IMG/VR virus record: IMGVR_UViG_3300045988_026548
Location: 1 to 58,501 of that record
Length of the DNA: 58,501 bases
Reading direction: 5' to 3' (one strand)
Origin: a virus
Both the position numbers and the translations under genes were made by a program. Below the pieces are notes generated by a model. It was not told where the DNA came from. It saw only the letters and a list, made by a program, of their open reading frames with translations, and did not search any database. This document shows, one piece after another, positions 2,927-51,148 of this stretch. Position 1 is the first letter of the stretch, and each line of letters opens with the position of its first letter.

Positions 2927-3083
2927 TAGGTGCGGCGAAACGTTTACGTTTGAAGAATGGAATAAATGGAACAAAATGAATGGGAAAATTGAAGTTCGGC
3001 CAATAATCGGCGGGGAAGAAGGGTGGAGCATTCTTCTTTGCCCCTCTTGCATGGCAAGTCCGCCGAAAGAGACGGAATCTTGA
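2910..3083 (+). CDS. Small zinc-ribbon protein
   Basis: CDRCG...CPSC pairs; start among ATGs at 2901/2910/2916 is uncertain. Confidence 0.5.
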   Translation: MTMVCDRCGETFTFEEWNKWNKMNGKIEVRPIIGGEEGWSILLCPSCMASPPKETES

Positions 3084-3173
3084 TTTATAACAGGTACATG
3101 GAAAAGGTTATCAAAATCGAAGATGAAAAAGAAGCCCGCTGGCTCTCTCGCCTTGAAGCAAAGGAGGATAAAA

Positions 3174-3437
3174 ATGGCTGAATACCATGTTGGATGTGGG
3201 ATGTTTGGAAACATCTATGCAGGAACGATGATGAAGCAGCGGAAAGATGGATTGCAGTTATGGAGAAGCAAGTCTGATGTGACCGATGAAGCAGTTTCCG
3301 CTGTTCTGTCTCATTTTATTACTGAAATGGAGTGTTCAGACAAGACGAAGCTCGAAAAGGTGTGGGGCGTTATTGGAAACAAGAAGCTAAAAGTTACATT
3401 CGAGCTTTCAGCCAATAAGGAGCAGTCGGATGAATAA
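3174..3437 (+). CDS. Hypothetical protein
   Basis: aaggaggataaaaATG RBS at 3174 inside ORF 3123-3437. Confidence 0.6.
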   Translation: MAEYHVGCGMFGNIYAGTMMKQRKDGLQLWRSKSDVTDEAVSAVLSHFITEMECSDKTKLEKVWGVIGNKKLKVTFELSANKEQSDE

Positions 3438-3475
3438 ATTCGAAAACTGCCCCTCGAAAAAGAGCTGAGAGAAAG

Positions 3476-3670
3476 GTGGAGCTAACAATGTTTGAATTTG
3501 CAACTCGCTGGCTGGTCTGCCTAGTCCTGCTGGCGATGGTAGTTCAGTCCGAACGGACAATCAAAAACATGGCAGACAACCTGTTTGAAAAACGGCAAGC
3601 AATGCTCGTCTGGCTGTTCGTCAACGTGTGTCTGGTCGTTTGTACGGCTGTTGTGATGGGGTGGAAATGA
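3476..3670 (+). CDS. Small membrane protein
   Basis: Two hydrophobic helices (WLVCLVLLAMVV; LVWLFVNVCLVVCTAVVMGW); GTG 3476 or ATG 3488. Confidence 0.55.
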   Translation: MELTMFEFATRWLVCLVLLAMVVQSERTIKNMADNLFEKRQAMLVWLFVNVCLVVCTAVVMGWK

Positions 3671-3858
3671 TGATTCAGGATATCAACATGATAGGGCGTG
3701 AAAGGCTGGCTTTTCTGTATGGCCTTTATAGTGGCTGTGCGAAATCCGAAACTGAGCTTAATACCAAAGGCATTTATCAGAAAATCGCTTCTGAGTTAGC
3801 TTGGTGTTTGGGATTCAACGAGAACAACAGCAAATGCTATGAGATGAATGAGGAATAA
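3667..3858 (+). CDS. Hypothetical protein
   Basis: ATGA start/stop overlap with the upstream gene. Confidence 0.55.
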   Translation: MMIQDINMIGRERLAFLYGLYSGCAKSETELNTKGIYQKIASELAWCLGFNENNSKCYEMNEE

Positions 3859-3861
3859 CCA

Positions 3862-4026
3862 ATGGACAACGAACTTTACTGCCCGATGAAGATGACCAGC
3901 AATCCACTTGGTCGGTGCGTATGCGAGAAAGAAAAGTGCGCTTGGTGGCGGCAGTTGGATAACTGCTGTTCTATCTGGCAGATTGCACAGAAGCTGGACA
4001 GCATCGAAAAGAAGATGAAGAGGTGA
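3862..4026 (+). CDS. Small Cys-rich protein (54 aa, below the ORF-track cutoff)
   Basis: Hand translation MDNELYCPMKMTSNPLGRCVCEKEKCAWWRQLDNCCSIW...; fills the gap between neighbouring genes. Confidence 0.45.
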   Translation: MDNELYCPMKMTSNPLGRCVCEKEKCAWWRQLDNCCSIWQIAQKLDSIEKKMKR

Positions 4027-4030
4027 GAGT

Positions 4031-4357
4031 GTGAAAAAGCGAATTTACCTTGTTCTCGAAACCGAAGCAGACGAGGATGACAAGAGCATCCGTAGCGATA
4101 TTGAGCAAGAACTTGGGATGGCTACGCATTATTTTGAAATCTGCTCTTATAGCGAAATCGGGTTTGAGGGCTTGTGGAGAAGCACATTTGAGCAACCACC
4201 TAAGAAAGAAGATGCAGATGAAAACGGCTATGTGATGGCGATTGCCGGACCGATCACAAAGTCCGATTGCGTAGGTTATCCATATAAATGGTTGTGGAAT
4301 GGCGTTGCAAAGCATCCATACGCATACCCTGTTTGGAAGCCCATCAAGGAGGCTTGA
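4031..4357 (+). CDS. Hypothetical acidic protein
   Basis: 108-aa ORF with GTG start; ends ...YPVWKPIKEA. Confidence 0.55.
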   Translation: MKKRIYLVLETEADEDDKSIRSDIEQELGMATHYFEICSYSEIGFEGLWRSTFEQPPKKEDADENGYVMAIAGPITKSDCVGYPYKWLWNGVAKHPYAYPVWKPIKEA

Positions 4358-4360
4358 TAC

Positions 4361-5128
4361 ATGGCAACACCCCCGAAGCGTGGTCGTGGCAGACCGCCGC
4401 TGACCGAAGCTGAAAAGAAAAAGCGTGAGAAGCGGGCGCAAAAGGCGAAAGAAGAAGCCGCTGCGAAGCGCGAGAAAGAGCGTGAGAAGAAGAAACAACA
4501 GATGCTTAACAAGCGGAAATCTATCCGATCACAGGTGAGTAAAAAGGTGAAAGAACAACAGGAGTTAGCAATTGAGAAGTCGAAGATGATGAACACGGGC
4601 GATTTGCAGTCGAGAATCGGTGATGAAGAGGACAAGAAAATTATCGGAATGATTGCAGCCAAGTATTTTGGCGACCTTCCGAGCGTGGACATGAACAACC
4701 CGATTGAAGTGCAGCAACGCCTTGACTTCTTCTTTGACGCTTGCATCGAAGCCAGAATCTCCCCTGTGGTGGAATGGATCGCGCTGGTTCTGGGCATCGA
4801 ATGGGTGAGCCTGAAGCAAATTATGGCGGGCAAACGCCGTGACGACAGCTTGCAGCAGAAGTACATTTTGAAACTGATTCTGCAAATGCAGTCCATGTGG
4901 GCGTACAACGGTATGTACGGTCAGGAGAACCCGGCAGAGTGGATTTTCCGAGCCAAGAACTACTTTGGTATGCGTGACAACGTGGAAGTTACCGTTGCGC
5001 CGCCTGAACAGCCGTTGGGCGATGCCCAGAGCGCAGAACAGTTGGCTCAGAAGTACCAGACGGCTTTGCCGAAGGGGATTGACGTGGAGTACAGAGAGGT
5101 GGCGAAAAATGAAACAACGGTTGGTTGA
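4361..5128 (+). CDS. DNA-binding protein with AT-hook-like N-terminus; terminase-small-subunit-like core
   Basis: PKRGRGRPP plus a Lys/Glu coiled coil; QQRLDFFFDACIEARISPVVEWIALVLGI resembles TerS HTH regions. Not adjacent to terL. Confidence 0.35.
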   Translation: MATPPKRGRGRPPLTEAEKKKREKRAQKAKEEAAAKREKEREKKKQQMLNKRKSIRSQVSKKVKEQQELAIEKSKMMNTGDLQSRIGDEEDKKIIGMIAAKYFGDLPSVDMNNPIEVQQRLDFFFDACIEARISPVVEWIALVLGIEWVSLKQIMAGKRRDDSLQQKYILKLILQMQSMWAYNGMYGQENPAEWIFRAKNYFGMRDNVEVTVAPPEQPLGDAQSAEQLAQKYQTALPKGIDVEYREVAKNETTVG

Positions 5129-5894
5129 CTTCTCCGACCCGATTCTTTCAGCGGTGCTGTTTATTTTGCTTAAAGACCGTGCTACCGGCAAAAACATCAT
5201 CTGGGCAACAGAGCCACCGCCTGAACTGGGCATAGGCTTTGCGGATGAAATCACGTTAGGACAAATCAAGAAGTGCCCACCAGTGCCAAGAGTTCTTAAG
5301 CGTCTAGATGAGCAGAAGCAAAGAACCAAAGCAAAAGCAGAGGTTTTCACTCCTTCTTGGGTCTGCGAAAAGATGATAGACATGGGCGAAGAAAACGGTG
5401 CGATGCCCGATATGAAGAAAGAGCCTATCAAGTACATCCATTCGACAGTTCTTGAAATCACCTGCGGAGAAGCACCATTCCTTGTGAACCGATACGACAC
5501 GGTAACAGGCAAAAAGATTCCAGTACCAAGACGGAAAGGACTATTTGACCGCAAACTGAAATGTGTAAACAACTGGTTTGATTGGAATGTCTGGACATGG
5601 CACGATGTGGCAGAGGACGCAGCAACGACTACATACGGCTATGAGTGGCAGGGTGACAGCCTGTTGCTTGCAAGAGCAAATATGCTCATGACATGGCGAG
5701 AGAACTTTAAGTGGCTGTTTGGCATAGAGCCTGACGCTGGGAAGGTTCGCGAGATGGCTGCTATCATCTCATGGAACGTCTGGCAGATGGATGGGCTGAA
5801 AAAGACCGTGCCCGGCACGGACATTCCGTGCAAAATCAAAGACTGGAAAGCTGACAAAGAAATCCTGTTCAAGGATGTTGTGGAGGAAAAATAA
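5109..5894 (+). CDS. N6-adenine methyltransferase-like protein lacking an NPPY motif
   Basis: AEVFTPSWVCEKM and LEITCGEAPFLV (motif I-like), YGYEWQGDSLLLARANM; no (D/N)PP(Y/F) seen before the stop. Confidence 0.4.
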   Translation: MKQRLVDFSDPILSAVLFILLKDRATGKNIIWATEPPPELGIGFADEITLGQIKKCPPVPRVLKRLDEQKQRTKAKAEVFTPSWVCEKMIDMGEENGAMPDMKKEPIKYIHSTVLEITCGEAPFLVNRYDTVTGKKIPVPRRKGLFDRKLKCVNNWFDWNVWTWHDVAEDAATTTYGYEWQGDSLLLARANMLMTWRENFKWLFGIEPDAGKVREMAAIISWNVWQMDGLKKTVPGTDIPCKIKDWKADKEILFKDVVEEK

Positions 5895-5897
5895 GCA

Positions 5898-6110
5898 ATG
5901 GTTGTTTTTGTTACGAAAAGAGAGTTAGAGGACGAAGATTTGAAAACACATATTGCTCAAGGTAAAGAGAGGATTCCAGCCGGAGCAAAGGTAGAACTCG
6001 TCAAGAGAATCGAAAATCTTTATGGAACGTATTACCTTTGCAACTACAAAGGCAAAAACTATTATCTTGACCCTCGCGACTTAAAATTGGAAGAGGAGTA
6101 TTTTGACTAA
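5898..6110 (+). CDS. Hypothetical protein
   Basis: 70-aa ORF tightly packed in the operon. Confidence 0.55.
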   Translation: MVVFVTKRELEDEDLKTHIAQGKERIPAGAKVELVKRIENLYGTYYLCNYKGKNYYLDPRDLKLEEEYFD

Positions 6111-6313
6111 TGCAAACTGACAGAGGAATCTACCACAAGCGAGTATGTGACCGCTGCGGAGCGGTTCTGTGCGGCAGGATGATGAACCCTGACGAATACT
6201 TCAAGGACTGGGCATGGCGCAGGGACACAGGCGACCTTTGCCCGGAGTGCTATGCAGAATATAAGCGATTGATCGGACGGTTCAACAGGGGAAAGAGAGG
6301 GCAAAGAAGATGA
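6110..6313 (+). CDS. Small zinc-ribbon protein
   Basis: CDRCG...CPEC pairs; start overlaps the upstream stop. Confidence 0.55.
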   Translation: MQTDRGIYHKRVCDRCGAVLCGRMMNPDEYFKDWAWRRDTGDLCPECYAEYKRLIGRFNRGKRGQRR

Positions 6314-6543
6314 AAAAGTGCGCTCTTTACAGATGCAAACAGTGCTTTGCAACCATGACGGACGAAGGCGATGTCAGAATCGACAAAGATATTGTTGATT
6401 GGATGTTTGAAAACGAAATGGAAGAAAGCAAGATTGGGTTTATCGCAAAGTTCAAAATAAGCGATAAAGTCCTCATCCATCGTTGCTCCAATAACACCGT
6501 TGGATTGTGTGAGTTTATCGGATGGAAGGAGATAGAGGAATGA
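6310..6543 (+). CDS. Hypothetical protein
   Basis: 77-aa ORF overlapping its neighbours. Confidence 0.55.
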   Translation: MKKCALYRCKQCFATMTDEGDVRIDKDIVDWMFENEMEESKIGFIAKFKISDKVLIHRCSNNTVGLCEFIGWKEIEE

Positions 6544-6785
6544 ACTTCTATTGCACCGCCGAACATTGCTTTATGTCAGGGATGTTTTTTCATAAAGGCG
6601 TTGTCAGGTGTACAGCGCATGACTGCAAAGACAGGACGGAGCCTTCCTGTGGCTCTTGCAAATGGTACGCAGAGCCGGAGGGCGTATGCGTAAACGACCA
6701 GTCAGAACACGTTGCAGACTTCGTGTGGGACGAACGTGGATGCAAGGAATGGGAGAAGAAAGATGACAGCAGGGGAGAAGATTAG
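6540..6785 (+). CDS. Cys-rich hypothetical protein
   Basis: ATG 6540 overlaps the upstream stop; many Cys/His residues. Confidence 0.5.
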   Translation: MNFYCTAEHCFMSGMFFHKGVVRCTAHDCKDRTEPSCGSCKWYAEPEGVCVNDQSEHVADFVWDERGCKEWEKKDDSRGED

Positions 6786-7242
6786 AAAGCGCAGGATTGA
6801 ACTTGGCATCACGCAGAAAGATGTTGCAAGTATTATTGGAACAACCGGCGCGTACGTCAGTGCCGTTGAAAAGCAAAAGCGTGGCGTAAAGAAAGAAACA
6901 CGGCTGGAAAAATTTGCAGAAGCCCTTAAATGCAGCGTTGATGATTTAAGGTCAGATGTTCCTAAAGGCATGGTAGACCCCGCTAATGACGACTTTGGAG
7001 CTGTCTGCAACTGCGCTGCCCGCTACTGCTTGGGCAGACGGTCGTATATGTCTAGCCTTGTCTGCGGATACATCATCTCGCTTCTGCCGGAGCTGACGGA
7101 CAAGACGCTTGATTGCTTTGAGCGTGACATTGCAGAACGAAAGCGGACAGGGTTCGACTTTGGCGATTCCTGCGACTATGAGACGTGGGATACGTTCTAC
7201 AAGGCGGTTTGTAAAGAGATTGAAGGGAGAAAAGAACAATGA
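6763..7242 (+). CDS. XRE-family helix-turn-helix protein
   Basis: GEKIRKRRIELGITQKDVASIIGTTGAYVSAVEKQKR is a classic HTH_3 pattern. Confidence 0.75.
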   Translation: MTAGEKIRKRRIELGITQKDVASIIGTTGAYVSAVEKQKRGVKKETRLEKFAEALKCSVDDLRSDVPKGMVDPANDDFGAVCNCAARYCLGRRSYMSSLVCGYIISLLPELTDKTLDCFERDIAERKRTGFDFGDSCDYETWDTFYKAVCKEIEGRKEQ

Positions 7243-7622
7243 AGAAAGCAATTTTATCTGTAGCATTGGCGGCATCTATCGCATTGTGCGGATGCACAGA
7301 AGCATCTCGTGTGAATCACAATATTTCGCAGCAGGCAAAGAATTTCAACGTCACTCGCAGATTGTCTGTTGTTAATGCAAGAACTGATACGCCGATGCTT
7401 GAAATAATCGGGAACATGGACATTTCCAATAACAGCAACAATGAACTTGTGGTGACTATTGAATTGCCCGATGGCACATACAAAAAGCATTACGTCTATC
7501 TTAACGAGTACACAATGTACATTGTGGAGGATTTGAGCGGTTCTGACGTGGACAAGTATCATTACGAAATCAACATCTTGCCGCAGCAGTTACAAAACTT
7601 CGTTCTCACCTACAATCCGTAA
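7239..7622 (+). CDS. Lipoprotein
   Basis: Signal peptide with lipobox: MKKAILSVALAASIALCGC. Confidence 0.7.
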   Translation: MKKAILSVALAASIALCGCTEASRVNHNISQQAKNFNVTRRLSVVNARTDTPMLEIIGNMDISNNSNNELVVTIELPDGTYKKHYVYLNEYTMYIVEDLSGSDVDKYHYEINILPQQLQNFVLTYNP

Positions 7623-7637
7623 GCGAGGTATCGGATA

Positions 7638-7871
7638 ATGGCTAACACTCTTTGGCATACAGCAAGCGAACCGCCACGAGAGCGGACGCAGCCTTTGTTG
7701 CTTGCGACTAAGACAATCTGGCGTGATAAAGATGGAAAAATGTTGCAAGGATTTTCGCCGGCAGCATACTTTCTTGGCTGTTACGCAGACGGTCAGTTCT
7801 GGGATGAGATAGGTGAGAGACTGCCGAAAGATGTTACGGTAACGCATTGGATGGCGTTCCCGATGGTATGA
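7638..7871 (+). CDS. DUF551-like protein
   Basis: C-terminal VTHWMAFPMV. Confidence 0.6.
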   Translation: MANTLWHTASEPPRERTQPLLLATKTIWRDKDGKMLQGFSPAAYFLGCYADGQFWDEIGERLPKDVTVTHWMAFPMV

Positions 7872-7880
7872 GGTGATGTT

Positions 7881-8087
7881 ATGAATGAATGGATTAGCGT
7901 AAAAAATAAACTTCCAAATGCTGAATACGGCGAATCTAAAGATGTGCTGACAATAAATTCTATGGGTGTTATGCGAGTAATGAACTTTGATGGAGGATGC
8001 TGGTGCTATCCGACTATGGAGCCTTACGCCAGTGCATTCAAAATTACGCACTGGATGCCCCTTCCTCAACCGCCAAAGGAGGCTTGA
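7881..8087 (+). CDS. DUF551-like protein
   Basis: MNEWISVKNKLP... and C-terminal ITHWMPLPQPPKEA. Confidence 0.7.
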   Translation: MNEWISVKNKLPNAEYGESKDVLTINSMGVMRVMNFDGGCWCYPTMEPYASAFKITHWMPLPQPPKEA

Positions 8088-8089
8088 GT

Positions 8090-8266
8090 ATGACGAACAA
8101 GAAGTTTGGTATCATCATTATGGACTTGAGCTTTTTTGATTTTGGGCCGAAGCCACCTTGCGGGTACATCAAGACGAAGCATATTCGCCCAGCTTACGGC
8201 AAAGGCGCAAGGCCTGTCAAGGCGCATAAGAGAATCACGAGAACGAGAGAGGGATTTAGAAAGTGA
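8090..8266 (+). CDS. Small basic hypothetical protein
   Basis: ATG 8090 just after the upstream stop. Confidence 0.45.
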   Translation: MTNKKFGIIIMDLSFFDFGPKPPCGYIKTKHIRPAYGKGARPVKAHKRITRTREGFRK

Positions 8267-8544
8267 AAAAGCTTAAATTTCCTGAGGATTTCTTTGCATA
8301 CGAAAACCCGGACTGCCCTGATAAGGATATTGAAAAAGCCGTAAACAGGATGAAGAACTGGATGAAGGGCGAGACCTACAAGAGCAACCCTTGGTTCTTT
8401 ATGGCTGCTGGCAACTATCTGATCGTAGGCCTAATTGCTGAGGATGGGCAGAAAACAATCTACGTTGCACGGCAGTATTATGAGATAGTCAACATTCCGG
8501 GCGAAGGCTGGCTGCGTGAATCTGACGCTGAGTGCCTGTTTTAA
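8263..8544 (+). CDS. Hypothetical protein
   Basis: 93-aa ORF, GTG start overlapping the upstream stop. Confidence 0.55.
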   Translation: MKKLKFPEDFFAYENPDCPDKDIEKAVNRMKNWMKGETYKSNPWFFMAAGNYLIVGLIAEDGQKTIYVARQYYEIVNIPGEGWLRESDAECLF

Positions 8545-8556
8545 GGAGAATTAAAG

Positions 8557-8820
8557 ATGGAAGAACTTAAAAGATGCCCGTTCTGCGGCAAGAACTCAGT
8601 TTACATTGGCGTGTGCGATGATGAAGGCAACTTTCATGGTCGTTTGGGATGCGAGTACGAACAAGACCCGTGGAGCGGGCTTTCTTATGACTTGCATCAC
8701 GAAGGATGGGGCAAATGTATCCTTTGCACGGATGGAGACAATCAAAGCATGGGTGGCGCACTGTTTGACACGGCAGAGGATGCTATCGAAGCATGGAACA
8801 AACGCTACAAAGAGGATTGA
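8557..8820 (+). CDS. lar: Lar-family restriction alleviation protein
   Basis: LKRCPFCG near the N-terminus and AIEAWNKR at the C-terminus are the Lar-family hallmarks. Confidence 0.7.
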   Translation: MEELKRCPFCGKNSVYIGVCDDEGNFHGRLGCEYEQDPWSGLSYDLHHEGWGKCILCTDGDNQSMGGALFDTAEDAIEAWNKRYKED

Positions 8821-8822
8821 GA

Positions 8823-9461
8823 ATGGACAAAAAACGAGACAGCTTTACATTCCAACGATACTACTTTGAAGCCATTTCCACGCTGAAAAGCAAAGAGAAG
8901 TTGGAACTCTACGATGCAATCTGTGCATACGTTTTTGAAGAAAAAGACGCAACTTTGAACTCAAAAAAAGCAGAATCTTGTTTTATTTTGATTAAGCATC
9001 TGCTCGATGAAGAATCGAAAAGAAGCGATATTGCGTCAAAAGGATGGTCTACACGAAAGTCAGCTCATCCTCATGTCATAAATGAGATGAAGGTCAGCTC
9101 ATCTATGAGTTCAAAGTCAGATGACAATGAACCCATTGTATCAACTGACAGTCAGATGAACGTCAAGACATTGCCGGAGAGCGCAGTCAAGAAGAAACCT
9201 GACATCTTCTCCGACTTTGCTCATGGCGATAAAGCCTTGTTGGAATCCCTGCGAGAGTTCGCACAAATGCGTACAAGAATCAAGAAGCCTATGACAGACC
9301 GTGCAAAACAGATGCTCTGCAACAAGCTGGAAAAGTTTGATCGGCATGACTGGAAAGCCATTCTCGACCAGAGCATCTATGCCGGATGGCAGGACATTTA
9401 CGCATTGAAACAGGATGACCAGTACGAGCAAAGTACGGAGACGGAGTTTCCTAGACTATGA
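8823..9461 (+). CDS. Putative replisome organiser / helicase-loading protein
   Basis: Immediately upstream of and overlapping dnaB; C-terminal WKAILDQSIYAGWQDIY resembles the conserved phage C-terminal replication domain. Confidence 0.4.
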   Translation: MDKKRDSFTFQRYYFEAISTLKSKEKLELYDAICAYVFEEKDATLNSKKAESCFILIKHLLDEESKRSDIASKGWSTRKSAHPHVINEMKVSSSMSSKSDDNEPIVSTDSQMNVKTLPESAVKKKPDIFSDFAHGDKALLESLREFAQMRTRIKKPMTDRAKQMLCNKLEKFDRHDWKAILDQSIYAGWQDIYALKQDDQYEQSTETEFPRL

Positions 9462-10663
9462 CAATGGACGTTCAAACGGTATTTATCGGTGCGCTGATGC
9501 TCTGCAAGCCGGGCGTTGTGGATGAAATCATACCAGACCTTGAACTTGACTTGTTCAGACCTGAGCTGAGAGACACTTTTGCGGCTGTTCAGGGCTATTG
9601 GACTGCTAGGGGTAAAATAGATATAGTCGAGATAAACGCGCAGCATCCAGACGTAGCGCAGACGCTCTTGGCGTGTGTACAAACCTGTGAATCAGAGTGT
9701 GTACGAATTGACAGGGAGCAGATGCAGCGTTGGGCACAGCTTATCAGGGAACAAGCTGCACTCACTCGTGTGCAAAGTCTGGCATTTCAGATGACCAGCG
9801 AGCTTACCGACTATTCTGATCTATCAGACATTTACCAGCAGATGGGCGAATCAATGAGCCTGAAAGCTGAGGAAGAAGATGCGTGGACATACGAGGATGT
9901 GCTGAACGACTATGTGCTTCACATGGACGAGAAGCCTGTGTATATCAAGACAGGCCTAGAGCGTCTGGATGAAGCGCTGCACATCTCACCGGGTGATTTC
10001 ATCATCATCGGCGGCAGACCATCTTCGGGCAAGACAGCCCTATCCTTGCAAATAGCAGCAAGCATGGCAAAGCAGAACTACACCGTGTACTATTTCAGCT
10101 TAGAAACCAGCAAACGAAAGCTGGGCGCACGTCTGATGGCTAATCAAATATACTGCCCTCTGGACACGGTGAAAAATAAGGCGGTCAGCTTGAATGAGAT
10201 TGACGGACAGGCAAAGAACATGAAGATGCCCCTATATATCCGCTCCGCTGCCGGAAAGAACGTGGCATGGATGAAAGCTCAGGCTCTCCGTAAAAAGGCT
10301 CAGGTCATCTTCGTAGACTATCTTCAACTCATTCATGAAACAGGCGTAAAGGACAGATATGCCGCCATTACAGCCATATCTATTGCCTTACACGAACTGG
10401 CACAGACCACAGGCATTGTCGTGGTGGCACTGGCACAGCTTAATCGAAACCCATCCAAGCCCGGAGCAACGCCTACTAACTCCGACTTGCGAGAGAGCGG
10501 ACAGATTGAACAGGACGCTGATGCAATCATCCTTCTGTCTGGTGATAACCCCGACAAGTATCTGTTTCGGCTAAGCAAGAACAAGGAAGGCGAGATAGGC
10601 GACCTTCCCATAACGTTTAACAAGCAGATTCAACGGTTCCAAGAGTATACTTGGATGGACTGA
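9458..10663 (+). CDS. dnaB: Replicative DNA helicase, DnaB family
   Basis: Walker A GGRPSSGKTALSLQIA, VDYLQLI, SDLRESGQIEQDADAIILL. Confidence 0.9.
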   Translation: MTMDVQTVFIGALMLCKPGVVDEIIPDLELDLFRPELRDTFAAVQGYWTARGKIDIVEINAQHPDVAQTLLACVQTCESECVRIDREQMQRWAQLIREQAALTRVQSLAFQMTSELTDYSDLSDIYQQMGESMSLKAEEEDAWTYEDVLNDYVLHMDEKPVYIKTGLERLDEALHISPGDFIIIGGRPSSGKTALSLQIAASMAKQNYTVYYFSLETSKRKLGARLMANQIYCPLDTVKNKAVSLNEIDGQAKNMKMPLYIRSAAGKNVAWMKAQALRKKAQVIFVDYLQLIHETGVKDRYAAITAISIALHELAQTTGIVVVALAQLNRNPSKPGATPTNSDLRESGQIEQDADAIILLSGDNPDKYLFRLSKNKEGEIGDLPITFNKQIQRFQEYTWMD

Positions 10664-11840: not shown

Positions 11841-11867
11841 AAGCGAATACAGAATCTAAGCGCATGG

Positions 11868-11890
11868 GCTGTCAGCAATGGCAGCTTTTT
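11868..11890 (+). terminator. Rho-independent terminator
   Basis: gctgtc-agcaat-ggcagc stem-loop followed by ttttt. Confidence 0.5.
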
Positions 11891-12032
11891 GCATATACGC
11901 GCAAAGAAGCCCTACAAACGCTTTTAGCGTCAGATGGCAAACTTATCGACAGAATACAGAAAATGGCTCTTGCACGGCTCTACGGGGCTGTGAGCGCATT
12001 GTAGAGGTCTACGACTATTGCAGGAGGAGAAA

Positions 12033-12746
12033 ATGCAGTACATAACAGTGAACATTGTGTGCCCCCGATATAAAATCTACCCACGATTTCTTGATAAGAT
12101 AAACATTAGCGCAAATGCGAAGGTCATCTATGTAGACCTTCTTGATCGTTCGTTCACGTCAAGACATAACGGTAAAGAATGGGTCGATAGCAAAGGACGG
12201 GTGTTTGTTCGATGTTCCAACGCAGAAGCAGGGGACATGGTAGGGAAGAAGGAAAGGATAGCCAAAGAATACTTGAAAGAGCTGAAAGATGCAGGATTGA
12301 TTGAATGCAAGCGCAATTATTCAAAATCCAACACGATTTACGTTGGGTATCCTGACGATGAGAAACTGTTCGACTATCAATCAGGCAATATATTGCCCAA
12401 CTGTAATGGCAAACAGGCAGAAAATTGCCCGACAATCGGGCAAAATAGTGCCCAACAATCGGGCAGAAAATTGCCCACTAGTAGATATATACATAGTAAA
12501 TATAAACATAGTAGATTAGACGAGGGCGCTCCGTGCGCTCCTCAGTTCGAGGAGGTTAGCGAGTTCTTTATTGACAACGGAAGCACGACAAGGTATGCCA
12601 ACCAGTTCATGCGGTATTACGAGGGACTTGGATGGAGAACAAAAAGTGGCAGTCCTATTATCAACTGGAAGCCAATAGCCCTTAATTGGATTGACCGAGA
12701 GCGGGAGAAGCAGCAGACTGATGGGTCTGACTTCCCACGATTGTAA
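12033..12746 (+). CDS. RepA_N-type replication initiator with DnaD-like C-terminus
   Basis: YPRFLDKINISANAKVIYVDLLDRSFTSRHNGKEWVDSKGRVFV...LKELKDAGLIE matches the RepA_N pattern; iteron array lies downstream and one iteron overlaps its RBS region. Confidence 0.65.
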   Translation: MQYITVNIVCPRYKIYPRFLDKINISANAKVIYVDLLDRSFTSRHNGKEWVDSKGRVFVRCSNAEAGDMVGKKERIAKEYLKELKDAGLIECKRNYSKSNTIYVGYPDDEKLFDYQSGNILPNCNGKQAENCPTIGQNSAQQSGRKLPTSRYIHSKYKHSRLDEGAPCAPQFEEVSEFFIDNGSTTRYANQFMRYYEGLGWRTKSGSPIINWKPIALNWIDREREKQQTDGSDFPRL

Positions 12747-12849
12747 AGGTTCTTTCCCCCCTACAACCCTCTATCTCCAAAGCTACACCGTTAGCCAGCA
12801 GAGCAGAGCGTAAGTGAGAACTGGCGTGAGGTTCGGGCTAGTGGATGGT

Positions 12850-13501
12850 CTGCGACTATTTCAGACATGGAGAATTGACTTCATTTTGTAACCGGTTGAA
12901 TATGTAGAAATGTTGCATAGTAGTATGAGCAGTTGATTACAAATTGAAAGCAACTGGTTAATCGGATAGTCTTATTAAATAGTTAAAAGCATTGAGGTAT
13001 TTGCCGAATGAATAATCCTAGTTGATTGGTGTGATATGATTGCAGTTGTCGGTAATTAAATTAGATGAGAACAAACCGAATCGGATGATACGACTATTCT
13101 AGTAGAATAATAGTTAAAAAGATTGAGTAATTGTCTGCGACTATTATAATAAGTACGATGGCTAAAGATTTTGAGGTAATGCGATTGGAATTAAAATCGA
13201 CAGGTGTCTTGACACATATTGATTTTGAGGGTGTCTGACTACTTAGCGACTATCGCACCTCTCTTTCTCTAAAAGGCAAATGACTATTTCACACAAAAAA
13301 TATACGACTATTTGACGAAGGTTCGTAAGAAAATGCTACGACTATCACTCTACGACTATCAGCGGACTGTTCGCTACTATACGATATACAGGACTTTCAA
13401 AGAATAGTCATCTGATGACTTTACGACTATTCTACGACTATTTGTCAGCGGAAACTACGACTATTGGCTACGACTATTCCAGCCGGGACGCTACGACTAT
13501 T
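12850..13501 (+). repeat. Iteron-type origin: at least 12 copies of (C)TACGACTAT(T/C) plus an AT-rich block
   Basis: Copies at 12850, 13089, 13135, 13244, 13303, 13336, 13350, 13422, 13432, 13455, 13468, 13491; inverted core at 13403; extra copy at 12009-12019. Confidence 0.8.
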
Positions 13502-13574
13502 GCTGACCTCTATTGGATATCGGGCGAAAGCCCGAAAAGAGCTGCGGCGGTAGCCGCCAGTTGTTCCGCGCCGC

Positions 13575-13645
13575 CGTGCCAGGAAGAAAGCATAATGCTA
13601 GGCTAATGCCAGGCTAACCAGGTGCCAGGCTAATGCCAGGCGTGG
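13575..13645 (+). repeat. Short tandem repeat (A)ATGCCAGGCTA, 4 copies
   Basis: tgccagg at 13577, 13607, 13623, 13634; ggctaa at 13601, 13612, 13628. Confidence 0.75.
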
Positions 13646-14060
13646 GAAACATCAAAACCCCGCCGGGCTTGCATGGTCTGTGATCTGCCGCACCGTCTGG
13701 CATGGATCCATAACAGGGGCGCACCCCTGCGCCCTTATATACATTATTATAATAGGGCGGCTGTGCTGAGCTGTACAGCGTCCGGCGTGGCGCTTGTATC
13801 TGGTATATGCTGGAGGTGTTACGGCGTTGTGATACGCTCCAGCGTAGCGCAGGCGGTATTATAGCCGCTTGTACCGGTCTTGTATCGTGGGCGGTGGAAT
13901 GGGTGCAATTGCAGGAAACACCCCTGTAAAGCCCTGTGCGCTTTTTTGTGTTGTGGGCGGTATAACTGCATTGACTGCGCAAAACGCACTGTAAACGCTT
14001 GTATGTGGCTGTATTGCAACAGGGCAAAATAAAAGCCCTGCACCCTCAGCAGATGCAAGG

Positions 14061-14092
14061 CAAAAGAAAAGCCCCGCCAGCGTGGGCGGGGT
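14061..14092 (-). terminator. Rho-independent terminator of the minus-strand cassette
   Basis: ccccgcc/ggcgggg stem (14072-14091) followed on the minus strand by CTTTTCTTTT. Confidence 0.7.
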
Positions 14093-14097
14093 GGATA

Positions 14098-14253
14098 TTA
14101 TTTATTTTTTTCTTCAAGGTCTGCAAGGGCGGCGCAAAGCTCTTGCGTTTCTTCTTCTGTCAAGTCGTATTCCGTGCGGAGTTGGTCAGCGTCTGTGCTT
14201 CTCCATCCTCCATCATACAGGGCGGCGGCGCTGCTAGAAACGTCTTTTAACAT
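14098..14253 (-). CDS. Small hypothetical protein (51 aa, below the ORF-track cutoff)
   Basis: Hand translation MLKDVSSSAAALYDGGWRSTDADQLRTEYDLTEEETQELCAALADLEEKNK; RBS ggaaaagaggaaaacc upstream; terminator downstream. Confidence 0.55.
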   Translation of the reverse strand: MLKDVSSSAAALYDGGWRSTDADQLRTEYDLTEEETQELCAALADLEEKNK

Positions 14254-14482: not shown

Positions 14483-14746
14483 TCAGACCACGTTAAAACG
14501 CTTGTATGTGGTGCGCTTGCTACACTCAGCATAAATATCCGGGTGCGCTACCTGCAAAAGTTTGCTATCAAGTCGGACGGAAGAAACATCCTTGTAAATG
14601 GCCTTTGCAGTGCCCTGCACCATTTCAGGCGCTCCCTGCATCATGGTGATTATATCGGCCTTGATTGCGTCATTCATTGCTTCTAATTCTTCCATGAGCC
14701 GCTTGTTTTCGCGGTATGCGTTTACTTTTTCTTCAAACGTCGTCAT
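14483..14746 (-). CDS. Hypothetical protein (coiled-coil N-terminus)
   Basis: aaggagggctaaaaaaATG RBS; MTTFEEKVNAYRENKRLMEELE...TTYKRFNVV. Confidence 0.6.
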   Translation of the reverse strand: MTTFEEKVNAYRENKRLMEELEAMNDAIKADIITMMQGAPEMVQGTAKAIYKDVSSVRLDSKLLQVAHPDIYAECSKRTTYKRFNVV

Positions 14747-14750
14747 TTTT

Positions 14751-19895: not shown

Positions 19896-20642
19896 ATGAA
19901 GAATGTAGCTGCGTATGTCAGAGTTTCCACGGATGGGCAATGTGGCGAAGATAAATTCGGAATGGAATCCCAGAAAGAGCAAATCGAAGAATACTGCCGC
20001 AAGAATGATATGAATATAATCAAGTGGTTTACTGATGCTGGCGAATCTGGCGCAAAGGAAAGGCCGGGATTTGACAGTATCGTGTATGGCGATGTTTCCA
20101 ATCCTCCGTATGAAGCGGTTGTTGTTGCAAAAAGCGATCGAGTTGCAAGAGACATCAACGTTTATTATTATTACAAGATGCTTCTGCTCAAAAAAGAGAT
20201 TTCTCTTATTAGCGTTGCGGAAGATTTTGGGAAAATGGGAGTTTTTTCTACAATGCTTGAAGCATTTACCCTTTGCTGTGCTCAAATGGAGCGTGAGAAC
20301 ATCACGAAAAGGACTTCTAGCGGCAGAGCCATTAAGGCTGCAAGTGGCGGCTATAGTGGTGGCAAGGCTCCTATGGGGTACGAGGTTAAGGATGGTGAAC
20401 TTTCAATCAAAGAAGATGAAGCGATAATTGTTCGGCGTGCTTTTGAATTGCGTGATGCTGGCAATACAATTCGTGGCGTAGCAGACAGATTGAATGAAGA
20501 AGGCTACTGCGGCAGAAACGGAAAGCCGTTTACCTCTAGCACAATTCAATCTATCCTTGGGAACAGAAAGACTTATGAGGGCTATTACCGCTACGGAAAA
20601 AATGATGAATGGGTAAAAGGAAAGCAGGAACCTATTTTGTAA
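19896..20642 (+). CDS. Serine recombinase (resolvase domain plus partial recombinase domain; no zinc-ribbon or coiled-coil)
   Basis: AAYVRVSTDGQ catalytic Ser motif; C-terminal IVRRAFEL...GNTIRGVADRLNEEGY...FTSSTIQSILGNRKTYEGYY is recombinase-domain-like; only 248 aa. Confidence 0.85.
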   Translation: MKNVAAYVRVSTDGQCGEDKFGMESQKEQIEEYCRKNDMNIIKWFTDAGESGAKERPGFDSIVYGDVSNPPYEAVVVAKSDRVARDINVYYYYKMLLLKKEISLISVAEDFGKMGVFSTMLEAFTLCCAQMERENITKRTSSGRAIKAASGGYSGGKAPMGYEVKDGELSIKEDEAIIVRRAFELRDAGNTIRGVADRLNEEGYCGRNGKPFTSSTIQSILGNRKTYEGYYRYGKNDEWVKGKQEPIL

Positions 20643-21233: not shown

Positions 21234-22898
21234 ATGCAGCCAAAGCAGTGTATCGCCATCATCGACAGCATCAAAGCGTATGCAAAGCAGAATCCGACCG
21301 AAGCGCAGGTTTATGAGGACTGGTTTCAGGCGGTGGTGAACCTAAGAGATGCCATGCCGCAGGACAAGCGGTTCGATGCCTACAAATACTCTGGTGAGCT
21401 ACGTTCTGTCTGTGCAGTCATGATGGGCAAGATGAAAACAGGTGAGGACGTGGCGAAAGTCTATGACATTATCGGCCGGACGTACCTGTTTGAAGCAAAG
21501 GATGTGTTTGACAGCTATTGCATCTACCTTGAATGGAATCGTGCGCCGGAAAAGAAGTTCTATCAGCCGAGAAGAAAGGTGTTGAGAACCGTTGCGAACG
21601 CCCTGCAAGACCTTGCGGATGACAGACTGGATTTGCTGGCGATCTCGATGCCCCCCGGCTGTGGTAAGACGGCTCTAGCTATTTTCTATTTGACATGGCT
21701 TGCCGGAAGAAACCCTGACGAACCTATGCTCACAGGCTCTCACTCGAACAGCTTTGTGCGTGGCGTTTATGACGAATGTTTGCGTATATTCGACAAGGAC
21801 GGAGAGTATCTGTGGAACGATGTTTTCCCGGACGTCATTGTGTCGAACACAAATGCGAAGGATTGCCGCATTGACTTAGGCAAGAGAAAGCGTTTTGAAA
21901 CTCTTGAATTTACGTCTATTGGCACTGGTAATGCTGGTTTGTACCGCGCATCTACGCTTCTTTACTGCGATGACCTTGTATCCGGTATCGAAGTGGCACT
22001 TTCCAAACCCCGCCTTGATAAGCTGTGGGAAACGTACACTACCGACCTTAGACAGCGTAAAATCGGCAACAAGTGCAAGGAACTGCATATTGCTACACGC
22101 TGGTCTGTCCATGATGTTATCGGACGATTAGAGCAAAACTACGGCGATTCCGACAGGAACAGATTCATTGTTATGCCAGCAATGAACGAAAAAGACGAAT
22201 CCAACTTCGATTATGACTACGGTGTAGGATATAGCACAGAAACGCTCCGCAAGCAACGCGAAGTCATGGATGAAATGAGTTGGAAAGCACTGTACATGAA
22301 CCAACCTGTTGAGCGTGAAGGTTTGCTGTTTCCTGCCGATGAACTGCGGTATTTCAACGGTGTTTTGCCTGATGGTGAGCCTGATCGCAAGCTTATGGTC
22401 ATGGATATTGCATGGGGCGGTGGTGACTTCACGGCTTGTCCTATCGCCTATGTGTACGGCGATGCTGTGTTCATCCCAGACCTTGTGTTCAATAACGGCG
22501 ATAAGACCGTGACTAGGCCGGAAGTTGTGGGCAAAATCATCCAGCATAAAATCAATGTAGTGCGTGGCGAAGCCAACAACGGCGGTGACGAATATTGCGA
22601 TGTGGTAGACAGCCAGCTTCGGCAGCAGGGTTATCACTGCTCTGTCCGCAGCCAACGTGCGCCAAGTGGTCAAAGCAAGCTGTCAAGAATCATCCAGTAT
22701 GCGCCTGATATCAAACGGTTCTATTTCCTTGACGAAAAGCACCAGTCGAAAGAGTACAAGGCATTCATGGAACAGGTGACGATGTTCACGCAGCTTGGCA
22801 AAGTTCCGCACGATGATGCACCGGATAGTTTGGCTCAGCTTGCCGATGAACTGTACAACGGAATCAGTAAAATCGAGCCTGTCAAGAGGCCTTTTTGA
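21234..22898 (+). CDS. terL: Terminase large subunit
   Basis: Walker A ISMPPGCGKT; C-terminal nuclease-like region; portal and capsid genes follow. Confidence 0.85.
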   Translation: MQPKQCIAIIDSIKAYAKQNPTEAQVYEDWFQAVVNLRDAMPQDKRFDAYKYSGELRSVCAVMMGKMKTGEDVAKVYDIIGRTYLFEAKDVFDSYCIYLEWNRAPEKKFYQPRRKVLRTVANALQDLADDRLDLLAISMPPGCGKTALAIFYLTWLAGRNPDEPMLTGSHSNSFVRGVYDECLRIFDKDGEYLWNDVFPDVIVSNTNAKDCRIDLGKRKRFETLEFTSIGTGNAGLYRASTLLYCDDLVSGIEVALSKPRLDKLWETYTTDLRQRKIGNKCKELHIATRWSVHDVIGRLEQNYGDSDRNRFIVMPAMNEKDESNFDYDYGVGYSTETLRKQREVMDEMSWKALYMNQPVEREGLLFPADELRYFNGVLPDGEPDRKLMVMDIAWGGGDFTACPIAYVYGDAVFIPDLVFNNGDKTVTRPEVVGKIIQHKINVVRGEANNGGDEYCDVVDSQLRQQGYHCSVRSQRAPSGQSKLSRIIQYAPDIKRFYFLDEKHQSKEYKAFMEQVTMFTQLGKVPHDDAPDSLAQLADELYNGISKIEPVKRPF

Positions 22899-47506: not shown

Positions 47507-48079
47507 TTAATCCTCCAAGAAATCCTCCAATTCAATCTTTCCTTCTGCCGCCGCAACCGCCAGAGCGTACACGAACTGTCCAATCGTCATTCCGTGCCGT
47601 CTGGCTTCACGGTTGATGTACTTGCGCTCTTCCTCGCTCATAAGGATGGTAATGCGCTTGGAACGCTTGCCATCGCCACTTGCAACGCCCTGATGTGATT
47701 CCGGCATCGGGATTTTTTTCTTTGTCAGACCAGCTTCAGCTAGTGCGCCGGGAACATCGCCTTGTTCGATAAGACGTTGAACTTCCTTTGCCTGTTTCAG
47801 CTTCTTTGGCTTACTTTCGCTTACTACGGCATTGTTCGGCTGTGTTTCGCTGTCTTTGGCTTGCTTCGGCTTAATATCGCTTAACTGTGCTTCATTAGGC
47901 TGTGTACGGCTGTCTGTGGCTTCATTAGGCTTAATCAATGCTTGTTCGGCTTCGTTCGGCTTCGCTTGGCTTACTTCTTCTTCCTTTGGCTCACTTCGGC
48001 TTAATGTCTGTTCCGAAAAAATAGGCTGAAAATCAAACCCGCCAAGCAAACCTGAGGATTTTTTGCTGGTCGATTTCAT
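47507..48079 (-). CDS. RHH DNA-binding protein with 10-aa tandem repeats (candidate centromere-binding ParG/ParR-like protein)
   Basis: C-terminal KRITILMSEEERKYINREARRHGMTIGQFVYALAV fits ribbon-helix-helix; six xxxKPNEAxx repeats; same operon as parA. Confidence 0.5.
   Translation of the reverse strand: MKSTSKKSSGLLGGFDFQPIFSEQTLSRSEPKEEEVSQAKPNEAEQALIKPNEATDSRTQPNEAQLSDIKPKQAKDSETQPNNAVVSESKPKKLKQAKEVQRLIEQGDVPGALAEAGLTKKKIPMPESHQGVASGDGKRSKRITILMSEEERKYINREARRHGMTIGQFVYALAVAAAEGKIELEDFLED
47801..48000. repeat. Array of 20 consecutive decamers, TTnnTTnGGC type (10-bp-phased GGCT)
   Basis: 14 of 20 decamers end in GGC, 3 in CGC, 1 in TGC; 30-bp super-period; lies inside CDS 47507-48079. 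Confidence 0.85.
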
Positions 48080-48603
48080 TCTGTGTCAGCCTCCTCATAA
48101 TCCGAATCTTCAAAGGACGGAGCTTCTGGTAGCGGCATCCAATGCGTCGCTCCAAGATTATTACACCAATCTGTTTTCCAAATAGGTTTACCACCGTCTT
48201 CTGGATAGAAGTAACACTGTGCAATATCTGTTCCTGTCAACGGCGATGCAACGAGGACGGGATTGCTTTCAAGTTCTCCGTTTATATCCACCATTTCTGG
48301 GTAGTGGTCGCTCACTTTAATCCATTCCTTGCTCCATAACCATTTTTCCTTGAAATATTGTACATCCTTCTTATACTGCTCTTTATCAGTGTCGCCACTT
48401 CTGTACCAATCACAGCTATGCAAAACACAAAGCAAATCGTACAGAAGCATACTCAAATCTTTGTCTCCAAGCGGATTTTCTTCTCGTGCAATAATCGAAA
48501 GCTCTTTTACACGTTCATCTGCAAGGCCATAATCTGGGTAGCAATGCTGATAAATAGCATTTGCAAGGCTGTCATTTTGATAATCCCAATGTCCACCGCT
48601 CAT
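48076..48603 (-). CDS. Protein with DUF551-like C-terminus
   Basis: C-terminal ATHWMPLPEAPSFE; overlaps both neighbours by 4 nt. Confidence 0.6.
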   Translation of the reverse strand: MSGGHWDYQNDSLANAIYQHCYPDYGLADERVKELSIIAREENPLGDKDLSMLLYDLLCVLHSCDWYRSGDTDKEQYKKDVQYFKEKWLWSKEWIKVSDHYPEMVDINGELESNPVLVASPLTGTDIAQCYFYPEDGGKPIWKTDWCNNLGATHWMPLPEAPSFEDSDYEEADTE

Positions 48604-49370
48604 TTTTCTTCTCCTTCTACAATAATCTCTGCCAACGCCTTGAAGTCCTCTGCGCTTGTGCTCTTTGCCGTGTCGCCGCTAAACAGGCTGTGCCGCTCTG
48701 CCTGCGCCTTACGAACGCCCATAGACGGTCTAATCTTCACATCCAACAGCGTTGTACCCATACTCTGTGCAATCACCGGAAGCTGCTCCACAACCTCTTT
48801 GGACAGGTTCTCCCGGCTCTTGTACTGGTTCAAAAGCAGACCTTCAATCTTCAAAGTTGGGTTGAAATATCTGCGAACATCTCCGATTGTCTGCGAAAGC
48901 TGGCTCAAACCAGCCAGTGCATATCGGTCTGCTGTGATTGGCACGATAATACTGTTGGCGGCGATCAGCGCGTTCACAAGCGCAAGACCAAGCTGCGGGG
49001 GAGTGTCCAGCACAATGTAATCATACTGACCAGACACGCTTTCAAGGGCTTCTCGTAGCCGGAAGTTCTTGCCCATGTCCCGGACGAGCTGTTCATCAAT
49101 GTCCTTCAATGCGTTGTCAGACGGCAGAATGTCACCGGCTTCACAGTGCTGGATTCCTTCTTCGACCGTACCTTGCCGTGTCATCACATCGAACAGGGTG
49201 CATACGTCCTCTGTCTGTGCGCCGTAGGTGTCCGTTGCGTTGCACTGGGCATCGCAGTCCACCAGCAGGACTTTCTTGCCAAGCAACTGCAACGCACCAG
49301 CCAGACAGGTGCTTGTGGTGGTCTTTCCTGTGCCGCCCTTCTGGTTGGCGACAGCTATGATTTTTGCCAT
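48600..49370 (-). CDS. parA: ParA/Soj-type partition ATPase
   Basis: MAKIIAVANQKGGTGKTT deviant Walker A; LLVDCDAQCN; YDYIVLDTPP. Confidence 0.9.
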   Translation of the reverse strand: MAKIIAVANQKGGTGKTTTSTCLAGALQLLGKKVLLVDCDAQCNATDTYGAQTEDVCTLFDVMTRQGTVEEGIQHCEAGDILPSDNALKDIDEQLVRDMGKNFRLREALESVSGQYDYIVLDTPPQLGLALVNALIAANSIIVPITADRYALAGLSQLSQTIGDVRRYFNPTLKIEGLLLNQYKSRENLSKEVVEQLPVIAQSMGTTLLDVKIRPSMGVRKAQAERHSLFSGDTAKSTSAEDFKALAEIIVEGEEK

Positions 49371-49387
49371 TTTATCACTCTTTCTTT

Positions 49388-49669
49388 TTAGTAGAACGGC
49401 CATGCTGCTTTTATCTCGTCTCCGACCCACAACACAGGCGTGACGTGCCATGCAATTACAGTTTCTTTGATTTCATTACTATCGGAATCAAACCATTTGC
49501 CGTTGATTGTATCGTACTCGCCGGTTATGAAACTTTTTTCTCCTGTTTTCTCATCTTCGATACGAAGTAAAAGCCCATGCGGCCATCCTTCTAGGCTTTT
49601 ATCCGGCATAACATCTTTAGTCATGTACCACTTGTCTTTGTCAAAACCTTTCGGAAACATTGGAACCAT
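49388..49669 (-). CDS. Hypothetical protein (weak DUF551-like end)
   Basis: 93-aa ORF between rep and parA. Confidence 0.5.
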   Translation of the reverse strand: MVPMFPKGFDKDKWYMTKDVMPDKSLEGWPHGLLLRIEDEKTGEKSFITGEYDTINGKWFDSDSNEIKETVIAWHVTPVLWVGDEIKAAWPFY

Positions 49670-50838: not shown

Positions 50839-50964
50839 ATAGGTGTACAAATCAATAGCAAATGTACACCTATTTCCACTTCTTGTACACCTAACTGTCC
50901 ACATTTCGTACACCTATTTCCACAATCTGTACACCTATATCCATTTTTTGTACACCTCTTTACA
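50839..50964. repeat. Rep_3 iteron array (TGTACACCTATnTCCA, 5 direct copies at 21-22 bp spacing plus 1 inverted)
   Basis: Direct copies at 50863, 50884, 50907, 50928, 50949; inverted core ataggtgtaca at 50839. Confidence 0.85.
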
Positions 50965-51148
50965 TTATATAAAACAAGACTATTAACAAGATTATAAAAT
51001 AACTTCTACTAATAGCAGAAGAAGAAAATTTTCCACAAAATCTTTTCTTTCTCTCTTAAAAAGTGGAAAACACAAAGCGAATACTACCAAATAAACAGAT
51101 GTTCAACATCCGAAAGGTCGAAGCACTTAACGGTTAGGTTTACCTAAC

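Follow-up and report, generated by a model that had tools for sequence, protein, structure and literature searches.

In the 58,501-nt window analysed here, which is the whole of IMG/VR virus record IMGVR_UViG_3300045988_026548, an array of short repeats of the form TACGACTAT, with the core CGACTAT, lies downstream of a gene for a RepA_N-like replication initiator (12033-12746, + strand). The window also carries large-terminase (TerL), portal, capsid and tail genes and is therefore a phage-plasmid, one with two replication systems. A preliminary description of this DNA had taken the repeats for the iterons of a second origin, bound by the adjoining initiator. The array spans 13245-13500, and stray copies lie at 12851, 13089 and 13136. 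We consider it somewhat better than an even bet that it acts in cis as a pac-type site recognised by the small terminase (TerS), because it is independent of the initiator, because it is tied to terS in distant phages, and because the window itself appears to encode a TerS of the same family. Judged from the genomes compared, the array is not the iteron set of the adjacent initiator, whose own iterons probably lie inside its gene.

The repeat cluster described earlier is real. Exact TACGACTAT occurs ten times in 58.5 kb, on the + strand only (starts 12010, 13089, 13303, 13337, 13351, 13422, 13433, 13456, 13469 and 13492), where simple arithmetic gives a chance expectation of ~0.45 on both strands together, and the genome-wide motif scan that had been proposed as a check puts eight of the ten in the array. 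With one mismatch or fewer allowed there are 26 matches, compared with 5.7 +/- 2.5 in shuffled sequences, and 26 was reached in none of 100 shuffles. The earlier figure of at least 12 copies downstream of the initiator gene stands for the core CGACTAT (12 copies between 12853 and 13494, a tally that includes TGCGACTAT at 12851 and 13136 and AGCGACTAT at 13245) and falls for exact TACGACTAT; the nine copies assigned to 13303-13501 become eight exact ones, all in the dense stretch 13303-13500. Over the whole window CGACTAT is found 19 times on the + strand and once on the - strand.

An alignment of 44 distinct sequences resolves the array into about 12 positionally conserved sites, in two clusters around a nearly invariant 45-bp spacer. 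Cluster I (13245-13359, + strand) has five such sites, at 13245, 13279, 13303, 13337 and 13351; cluster II (13413-13500, + strand) opens with a degenerate GATGACTTT at 13413 and continues with five exact copies (13422, 13433, 13456, 13469 and 13492) at spacings of 11, 23, 13 and 23. In the spacer between them (13375-13420, CGATATAyAGGACTTTCAAA...GTCATCTGA), which holds one degenerate inverted motif copy at 13404, most columns are at least 95% conserved, and we regard it as a candidate region for cleavage or nucleation. The array copies are direct repeats, with spacings across the family of 11, 13-14, 21-24 and 34 bp, near multiples of a helical turn.

Iterons are expected to change with the DNA-binding domain of their initiator and to be present wherever it is, and the TACGACTAT array does neither. 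One related genome, L001, shares window DNA at 11867-12048, as far as the first rep codons, and then again at 12546-12918 and 13069-14090, from the C-terminal domain onward: the N-terminal domain and the repeats within the gene have been replaced, yet the CGACTAT array downstream is unchanged. Among related loci whose flank reaches the gene for the DnaB helicase, 27 of 39 have no RepA_N gene between DnaB and the non-coding cassette that holds the array. L002 likewise has none before its cassette, and in L249, where TerS is only 37% identical to that of the window, the DUF6291 and DnaB genes are followed by 1.8 kb of non-coding DNA with the array present and the RepA_N gene absent. CGACTAT is absent throughout the 12.7 kb of L250, an element with both RepA_N and DnaB genes. 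The motif also has neither dyad symmetry nor an A-tract, whereas inverted arms converging on an A-tract are the signature of RepA_N iterons, including those of the pSK41 type (PMC7145576).

The copy said to lie immediately upstream of the ribosome-binding site (RBS) of the initiator gene is indeed there, at 12010, 15 nt upstream of the RBS and ATG. The autoregulation read from it is not supported: the copy (12010-12018) belongs to an 18-nt direct repeat with one arm on each side of the rep module, and is in the left arm. The two arms, GGTCTACGACTATTGCAG (12006-12023, + strand) and GGTCTGCGACTATTTCAG (12847-12864), are identical at 16 of 18 positions (89%), both contain CGACTAT, and they bracket the whole RepA_N gene; L001 carries CTATGACTATT where the window has the left arm. 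Because many relatives are without the RepA_N gene, the pair looks like an insertion/deletion junction of the rep module and not like an operator.

A different set of repeats accompanies the initiator. Its assignment to the RepA_N type was correct: the product, an N-terminal winged-helix domain, a repeat-encoded linker and a conserved C-terminal domain, matches Pfam RepA_N (PF06970) over residues 24-84 with 32.1 bits, above the gathering score of 30, PF06970 is present in all of its close homologues, and its PHROG match is 'DnaD-like helicase loader'. Within the gene, at 12378-12479 (+ strand), lie four semi-palindromic direct repeats of 23-24 nt (CAATCGGGCAAAATAGTGCCCAAC type: GGGCA, A-rich centre, TGCCC) at spacings of 32, 23 and 23, each a half-palindrome around an A-rich centre (GGGCA-AAATA-GTGCCC), which when folded as single-stranded DNA give z = -4.9. 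Directly after them comes an A+T-rich stretch (12480-12520, 19.5% GC) with two 15-nt repeats, a candidate DNA-unwinding element that is found likewise in L250 and L001. The Rep allele of L001, 37% identical to the window initiator, has three 22-nt half-palindromes of another sequence at the corresponding position of its gene (GAGGTGAACAATCATTCACCTC x3), and the RepA_N allele of L250, 45% identical, has GACGGAAAACCGTC x4 at the identical spacings of 32, 23 and 23. The half-palindrome thus differs by allele (GGGCAAAATAGTGCCC in the window, GGTGAACAATCATTCACC in L001, GACGGAAAACCGTC in L250), with position and 23-bp spacing alike. Since these repeats swap with the initiator while the array stays, it is they, and not the array, that travel with it.

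The Rep protein of plasmid pSK41 binds four Rep boxes in the middle of the gene that encodes it, and can do without the linker that these boxes specify (PMC5703833). The window gene resembles pSK41- and pAD1-type replicons in its RepA_N N-terminal domain, in its four central repeats, semi-palindromic, A-rich at the centre and changing with the N-terminal domain, in its conserved C-terminal domain, and in a linker that can be lost, one homologue (P0047) missing exactly the 26 amino acids encoded by the repeats. N-terminal domain and repeats swap as a unit, as in the pPR9 chimera (PMC5703833). The differences are that this initiator is borne by a phage and paired with a phage DnaB, whereas the plasmid initiators work with host DnaG, and that no antisense-RNA control is seen here. 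The repeats at 12378-12479 are the probable cognate iterons, and the origin of this initiator is best placed at 12378-12520, inside the gene, as in an ordinary member of the pSK41-type RepA_N class. L250 itself (ena:ERZ28575215 scaffold_181, 3052-9036) is a small element with genes for an integrase, a helix-turn-helix (HTH) repressor, an HTH_17 protein, a RepA_N initiator and DnaB; it is found on a 343-kb contig and also on short ones, and has the appearance of a satellite or of a small integrative element that uses the same initiator-helicase pair.

The association with terS comes from phages far removed from the window. A motif-only scan of viral contigs returned 120 loci, 90 of them with at least six copies within 700 bp and nearly always in one orientation. 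About 55 of these loci are kin to the window and roughly 30 belong to distant phages, with TerL 35-63% and portal 31-42% identical. Upstream sequence is available for 27 of the distant phages, and in every one a small-terminase gene of the GP3_package family (Pfam PF16677, matched at 5e-15) leads straight into the array, which begins at the stop codon of that gene or just ahead of it, with no replication genes alongside; L206, found by protein search, has the array at terS in the same way. A motif-independent set was drawn from bacterial genomes by TerS similarity alone (42 loci, 35 analysable, mostly in Oscillospiraceae and other Clostridia). In 17 of the 35, at least four copies of CGACT[ATC]T lie within ~600 bp around the terS stop, with zero copies on the reverse strand and a background of about one copy per 6 kb.

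The proposed reader of the array in the window is the small-terminase-like product of 4361-5128 (+ strand). In tblastn comparisons this protein matches the terS genes that abut CGACTAT arrays with E values of 1e-6 to 1e-17, and a homologue, P0033 (37% identical, E 1e-36), carries PF16677; homologues in cultured marine phages are annotated as small terminase and lie directly upstream of TerL. In the window, the gene for the large terminase is at 21234-22898 (+ strand; phrog_38 at 6e-59), and the list of open reading frames (ORFs) for 20.5-21.4 kb has no small-terminase ORF directly upstream of it. The gene at 4361-5128 is the only small-terminase-like gene; it sits in the early region, after genes for SSB, a methyltransferase and a Holliday-junction resolvase, 16 kb from TerL. 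The window thus has the matching TerS-like gene and the TerL gene expected with a pac site, and permuted DNA is indicated indirectly: across 47 related contigs of 54-62 kb the break points are spread round the genome, which fits circular or headful-permuted DNA, although circular plasmid DNA would look alike. Fixed genome ends, or a cos end at the array, can be set aside, as break points do not cluster there. Thirteen of the 47 break points fall at ~36-40 kb in window coordinates, an interval that is probably a hypervariable tail or host-range region at which assemblies break.

Three other proteins were considered as readers of the array. The window has no homologue of the small cluster-16 protein, whose gene immediately precedes the cassette in many relatives, and the DUF6291 protein is replaced in L001. 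An 87-aa protein encoded on the minus strand (14483-14747), similar by profile match to the C-terminus of the RecE-type PHROG 434 ('RecE-like recombination exonuclease') and to small PHROGs of unknown function, has its gene in only 4 of the 17 TerS-selected array loci and 10 of the 30 motif-selected distant loci. That gene is present in 56 loci altogether, 14 distant phages among them, and is not consistently beside the array.

Several observations count against a TerS site, and it is important to note that the connection between array and TerS is one of guilt by association. The window TerS has no Pfam or PHROG match of its own above threshold, PF16677 included. Its tentative membership of GP3_package draws on homologues plus a weak fold match: the only sensible PDB matches of its AlphaFold 2 model (predicted local distance difference test score 77) are chains of the P22 gp3 nonamer 3p9a, with template-modelling scores of 0.53-0.58 and weak E-values, and TerS profiles searched against PDB by sequence gave nothing significant, so that fold search alone pointed, weakly, to P22 gp3. 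In P22 gp3 itself the HTH-like motif has been reported as occluded (PMC4737164). In the window, 8.2 kb separate the array from terS and 7.7 kb separate it from terL, and the replication module is its neighbour. Roughly one in two TerS-selected prophages has no CGACT array despite similar HTH regions, and a comparison of array-bearing with array-less relatives revealed no clear TerS residue pattern that tracks the motif type. Finally, a conserved promoter-like site is aimed into the array, and some compensatory base pairs and a terminator occur in the GC-rich half of the cassette, so that a regulatory or transcript-level role is possible.

In several of the array-less relatives the corresponding position is taken by short direct repeats of another sequence (TTTGACC x4, TGAAAA x5, ACAAAGG x4, GCAGAA x5-6). 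At 48155-48528 of Clostridium phage vB_CpeS_BG3P (OK247671.1; loci L205 and L253), TGTATAA repeats, four or five in number, come after a remote TerS homologue; the linear record ends 373 bp after the TerS homologue, and TerL lies 1.7 kb into the record. The order terS, non-coding DNA, TerL resembles that of the array-bearing phages, with a different repeat. The paper on this phage reports no end mapping.

If the array is a TerS site, the parts of the window could work together as follows, where we infer what binds what and the position of the cut. The ~12 phased, same-orientation sites would be read by the product of 4361-5128, presumably a ring-shaped oligomer like P22 gp3. Because the repeats are direct and not inverted, they would suit a ring in which the same DNA-binding domain recurs; neighbouring HTH motifs in TerS rings are separated by about one turn of DNA, and the pac site of SPP1 has sets of direct repeats (PMC4737164). 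The bound ring would recruit the large terminase, which would cut nearby, the nearly invariant spacer between the two clusters being the candidate point of cutting or nucleation, and headful packaging would proceed from that cut. The RepA_N-like initiator would replicate the DNA without the array, binding its own four 23-bp iterons, opening the 19.5%-GC stretch that follows them and loading the phage DnaB through its conserved C-terminal domain, while a separate Rep_3/ParA replicon would sustain the prophage in plasmid form.

The array is part of a conserved non-coding cassette (12747-14100, + strand), which comparison of related loci delimits from the rep stop codon to a bidirectional intrinsic terminator (14071-14092) and in which we found no convincing ORF. 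One ORF, at 13614-14027 on the minus strand, has tblastn matches in 50 loci, but its translation is not protein-like and conservation of the DNA explains the matches. Of the 54 related loci with a match to this region, most preserve the cassette as a unit, and in the window family it always follows the DnaB module. Most of 12750-14100 is covered by 42-54 related loci at 75-95% identity, with fewer at 12900-13100 and 13550-13700; the rep gene, in contrast, is covered by only 1-14. The AT-rich block at 12880-13230 is as described earlier (32.5% GC, compared with 48.9% over the whole window), is poorly conserved (only ~17 loci align over 12950-13050), has motif copies at 13089 and 13136, and contains the two imperfect direct repeats that had been noticed, with 24-nt cores at 12978-13001 and 13109-13132 that are 83% alike, each preceded by AATCGGAT. 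At 13123-13150 (+ strand) is the best sigma-70-like promoter of the region (TTGAGT-16-TATAAT, 10 of 12 matches), directed into the array and with a TGCGACTAT copy in its spacer; the sequence TATAATAAGTAC at this site is retained in L001, L002 and L249.

Downstream of the array, 13501-14100 (+ strand) is non-coding and GC-rich (55%) and ends in the terminator; some 25-50 related loci conserve it, the number depending on position. RNAalifold predicts hairpins in it, with some compensatory pairs, for example in the helix 13786-13849 with its inner stem 13810-13824, and the region may correspond to a non-coding RNA or to structured DNA. No Rfam family matches this region or the rest of the cassette, and an nhmmer profile search for 13500-14100 found nothing outside the window family. 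About five copies of an 11-nt unit (TAATGCCAGGC) occur at 13593-13641, in the least conserved part of the cassette, where ~23 loci align at 61% identity.

Against this background the other explanations can be weighed. That the array comprises the iterons of a second origin, bound by the 12033-12746 product and with the RBS copy acting in autoregulation, now seems to us scarcely credible. The layout is suggestive, the array lying 500 bp downstream of the initiator gene and past an AT-rich block with a single copy shortly before the RBS, and for some RepA_N initiators, PLE RepA among them, the origin does lie outside the gene (PMC7145576). However, the array is unaltered beside an N-terminal-domain allele of 37% identity and in loci without the RepA_N gene, it is missing from the RepA_N and DnaB element L250, its motif has no dyad symmetry or A-tract, the gene has iterons of its own that change with the allele, and the same array abuts terS in phages where no replication genes adjoin it. 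The order of initiator gene, AT-rich block and short repeats also bears a superficial likeness to origins of the staphylococcal pathogenicity island (SaPI) type, but that model was rejected, as the array repeats do not follow the initiator in related genomes. In SaPI-type origins, short iterons flank an AT-rich region 3' of the initiator gene. An origin or other cis-site serving a different factor, whether the O-like/DUF6291 protein, DnaB loading or a host protein, would account for an array that in all of these phages closes the early operon, and for a cassette that in the window family always comes after the DnaB module and contains an AT-rich block, short same-orientation repeats by an AT-rich region being typical origin anatomy. 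We nevertheless think it quite unlikely: the motif stays constant even though L001 has a different protein encoded upstream of DnaB and other loci have one of only 35% identity, conservation within the cassette is lowest in the AT-rich block, and the distant phages have the array across the stop codon of terS, where no replication gene adjoins.

A regulatory function could take either of two forms, an operator field through which some DNA-binding regulator would govern rep expression and the promoter at 13123-13150, or an RNA repeat (UACGACUAU) in a non-coding transcript of ~0.95 kb that would run from this promoter to the terminator at 14071-14092. The conserved TATAAT(AAGTAC), the motif copy in the promoter spacer and the strictly one-strand orientation all speak for it, as do the conserved GC-rich region downstream, with its compensatory pairs and terminator, and the position of the array in the terS 3' end and 3' untranslated region of distant phages. 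Yet the array has no candidate regulator that goes with it (the window lacks the cluster-16 protein, and the gene for the RecE-C-like 87-aa protein is in only 14 of 47 distant loci), no Rfam family matches, and the GC-rich region is not detectably conserved beyond the window family. Distant phages moreover have 7-nt units placed back to back, which to our knowledge is not typical of protein-binding RNA repeats. We therefore hold a regulatory role to be unlikely. A composite in which the 1.35-kb cassette is a self-contained, movable control module, its DNA a packaging signal and its ~0.95-kb non-coding RNA, from the promoter at 13123-13150, a decoy or sponge for the terminase-like protein, so timing the switch from plasmid maintenance to packaging, strikes us as a long shot; equally speculative is the accompanying division of that RNA into a 5' half with at least ten UACGACUAU motifs and a 3' half forming a conserved structured domain.

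We accordingly return to a TerS recognition site, for which the closest models are the pac sites of headful phages such as SPP1 (pacL, pacC and pacR boxes), P1 and P22. As in these sites, several short direct repeats fall into two groups with a central region between them; a link of the cis element to terS is seen in distant phages, the proposed TerS probably belongs with P22 gp3 in Pfam family PF16677, and the genomes look circularly permuted. The pac sites of P1 and SPP1 are bipartite, and the two clusters of the array around a conserved centre resemble them; P1 pac has 4+3 hexamers, and P22 pac lies inside gene 3. The array differs in having 10-14 copies of one well-conserved 7-9-mer, in a core common to a wide phage clade found mainly in genomes of Oscillospiraceae and other Clostridia, and in its position in the window family, 8 kb from terS and beside replication genes. 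It is best filed, provisionally, as a pac-type site made of many copies of one heptamer, across a large phage clade known mostly from gut metagenomes. The reverse complement of P22 pac, in the sequence quoted in PMC5261728, contains AACGACTT, possibly by coincidence.

If the array is a pac site, a CGACTWT direct-repeat array at or near terS would mark the start of packaging across a large clade of phages and phage-plasmids, most of them uncultured and known from metagenomes of the human gut and elsewhere, in which the terminase clusters of the window alone have thousands of member sequences. Packaging starts, their direction and likely hot-spots of transduction would then be predictable from sequence, and the array would offer a natural, strongly sequence-specific and phased substrate for the model in which DNA wraps round the TerS ring. 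For annotation, the lesson is that short repeats beside an initiator gene are not necessarily its iterons, and that phage RepA_N-type initiators may carry their origin within the gene.

The closest database relatives of the window are unannotated phage contigs from human faeces; as to its host, the window TerS has no close relative in 185,579 species genomes. Of the claim that two replicons share this genome, the part that survives is the presence of two separate replication systems; the TACGACTAT array as the origin of one of them does not. The phage-type module (O-like/DUF6291, DnaB, RepA_N-like) spans 8.8-12.7 kb. The DUF6291 or 'replication initiation O-like' gene (8793-9461, + strand) and the DnaB_C gene (9458-10663, + strand), identified by Pfam and PHROG and together occupying 8793-10663, lie upstream of CDS 12033-12746, in agreement with the helicase neighbour reported before, and a radical-SAM gene is also among the genes that precede it. 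The separate plasmid replicon (48600-51324, - strand), recognised by profile matches and a repeat search, consists of a ParA gene (48600-49451, - strand), a Rep_3 initiator gene (49715-50836, - strand; Rep3_N 1.5e-21, Rep3_C 6e-16) and iterons. The latter, TGTACACCTAT x7 at 50839-51324 and 21-22 bp long, are unrelated in sequence to TACGACTAT, as had been stated; they include 4.6 tandem units of 21 nt at 50863-50961, with inverted copies besides, and an initiator with both Rep3_N and Rep3_C domains adjoining tandem iterons of about 22 bp is what defines a Rep_3 iteron plasmid replicon. BLASTP detected no C-terminal domain common to the two initiator-like proteins of the window. P1 is likewise a phage-plasmid with separate maintenance and lytic replication functions (oriR and oriL); the window shares with that type an iteron replicon plus partition ATPase (Rep_3, ParA) alongside a separate phage replication module, and differs from it in the protein families.

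Downstream of ParA, at 47795-47997, about eight copies of 10-nt tandem units (TTCGGCTTGC type) lie in or beside a gene for a NikA-like (ribbon-helix-helix) protein and are a candidate partition centromere of the plasmid replicon. Just upstream of TerL, 19896-20642 (+ strand) encodes a 248-aa serine recombinase with Resolvase and Recombinase domains, which covers only positions 87-343 of a 651-position integrase profile; homologues occupy the equivalent position in distant integrated prophages, and it may be an integrase remnant in a lineage turned plasmid. To the right of the cassette, a RAGATH-5 RNA (Rfam RF02685; 14345-14397, - strand) scores 62.5 bits against a gathering score of 50 and sits between two small minus-strand genes.

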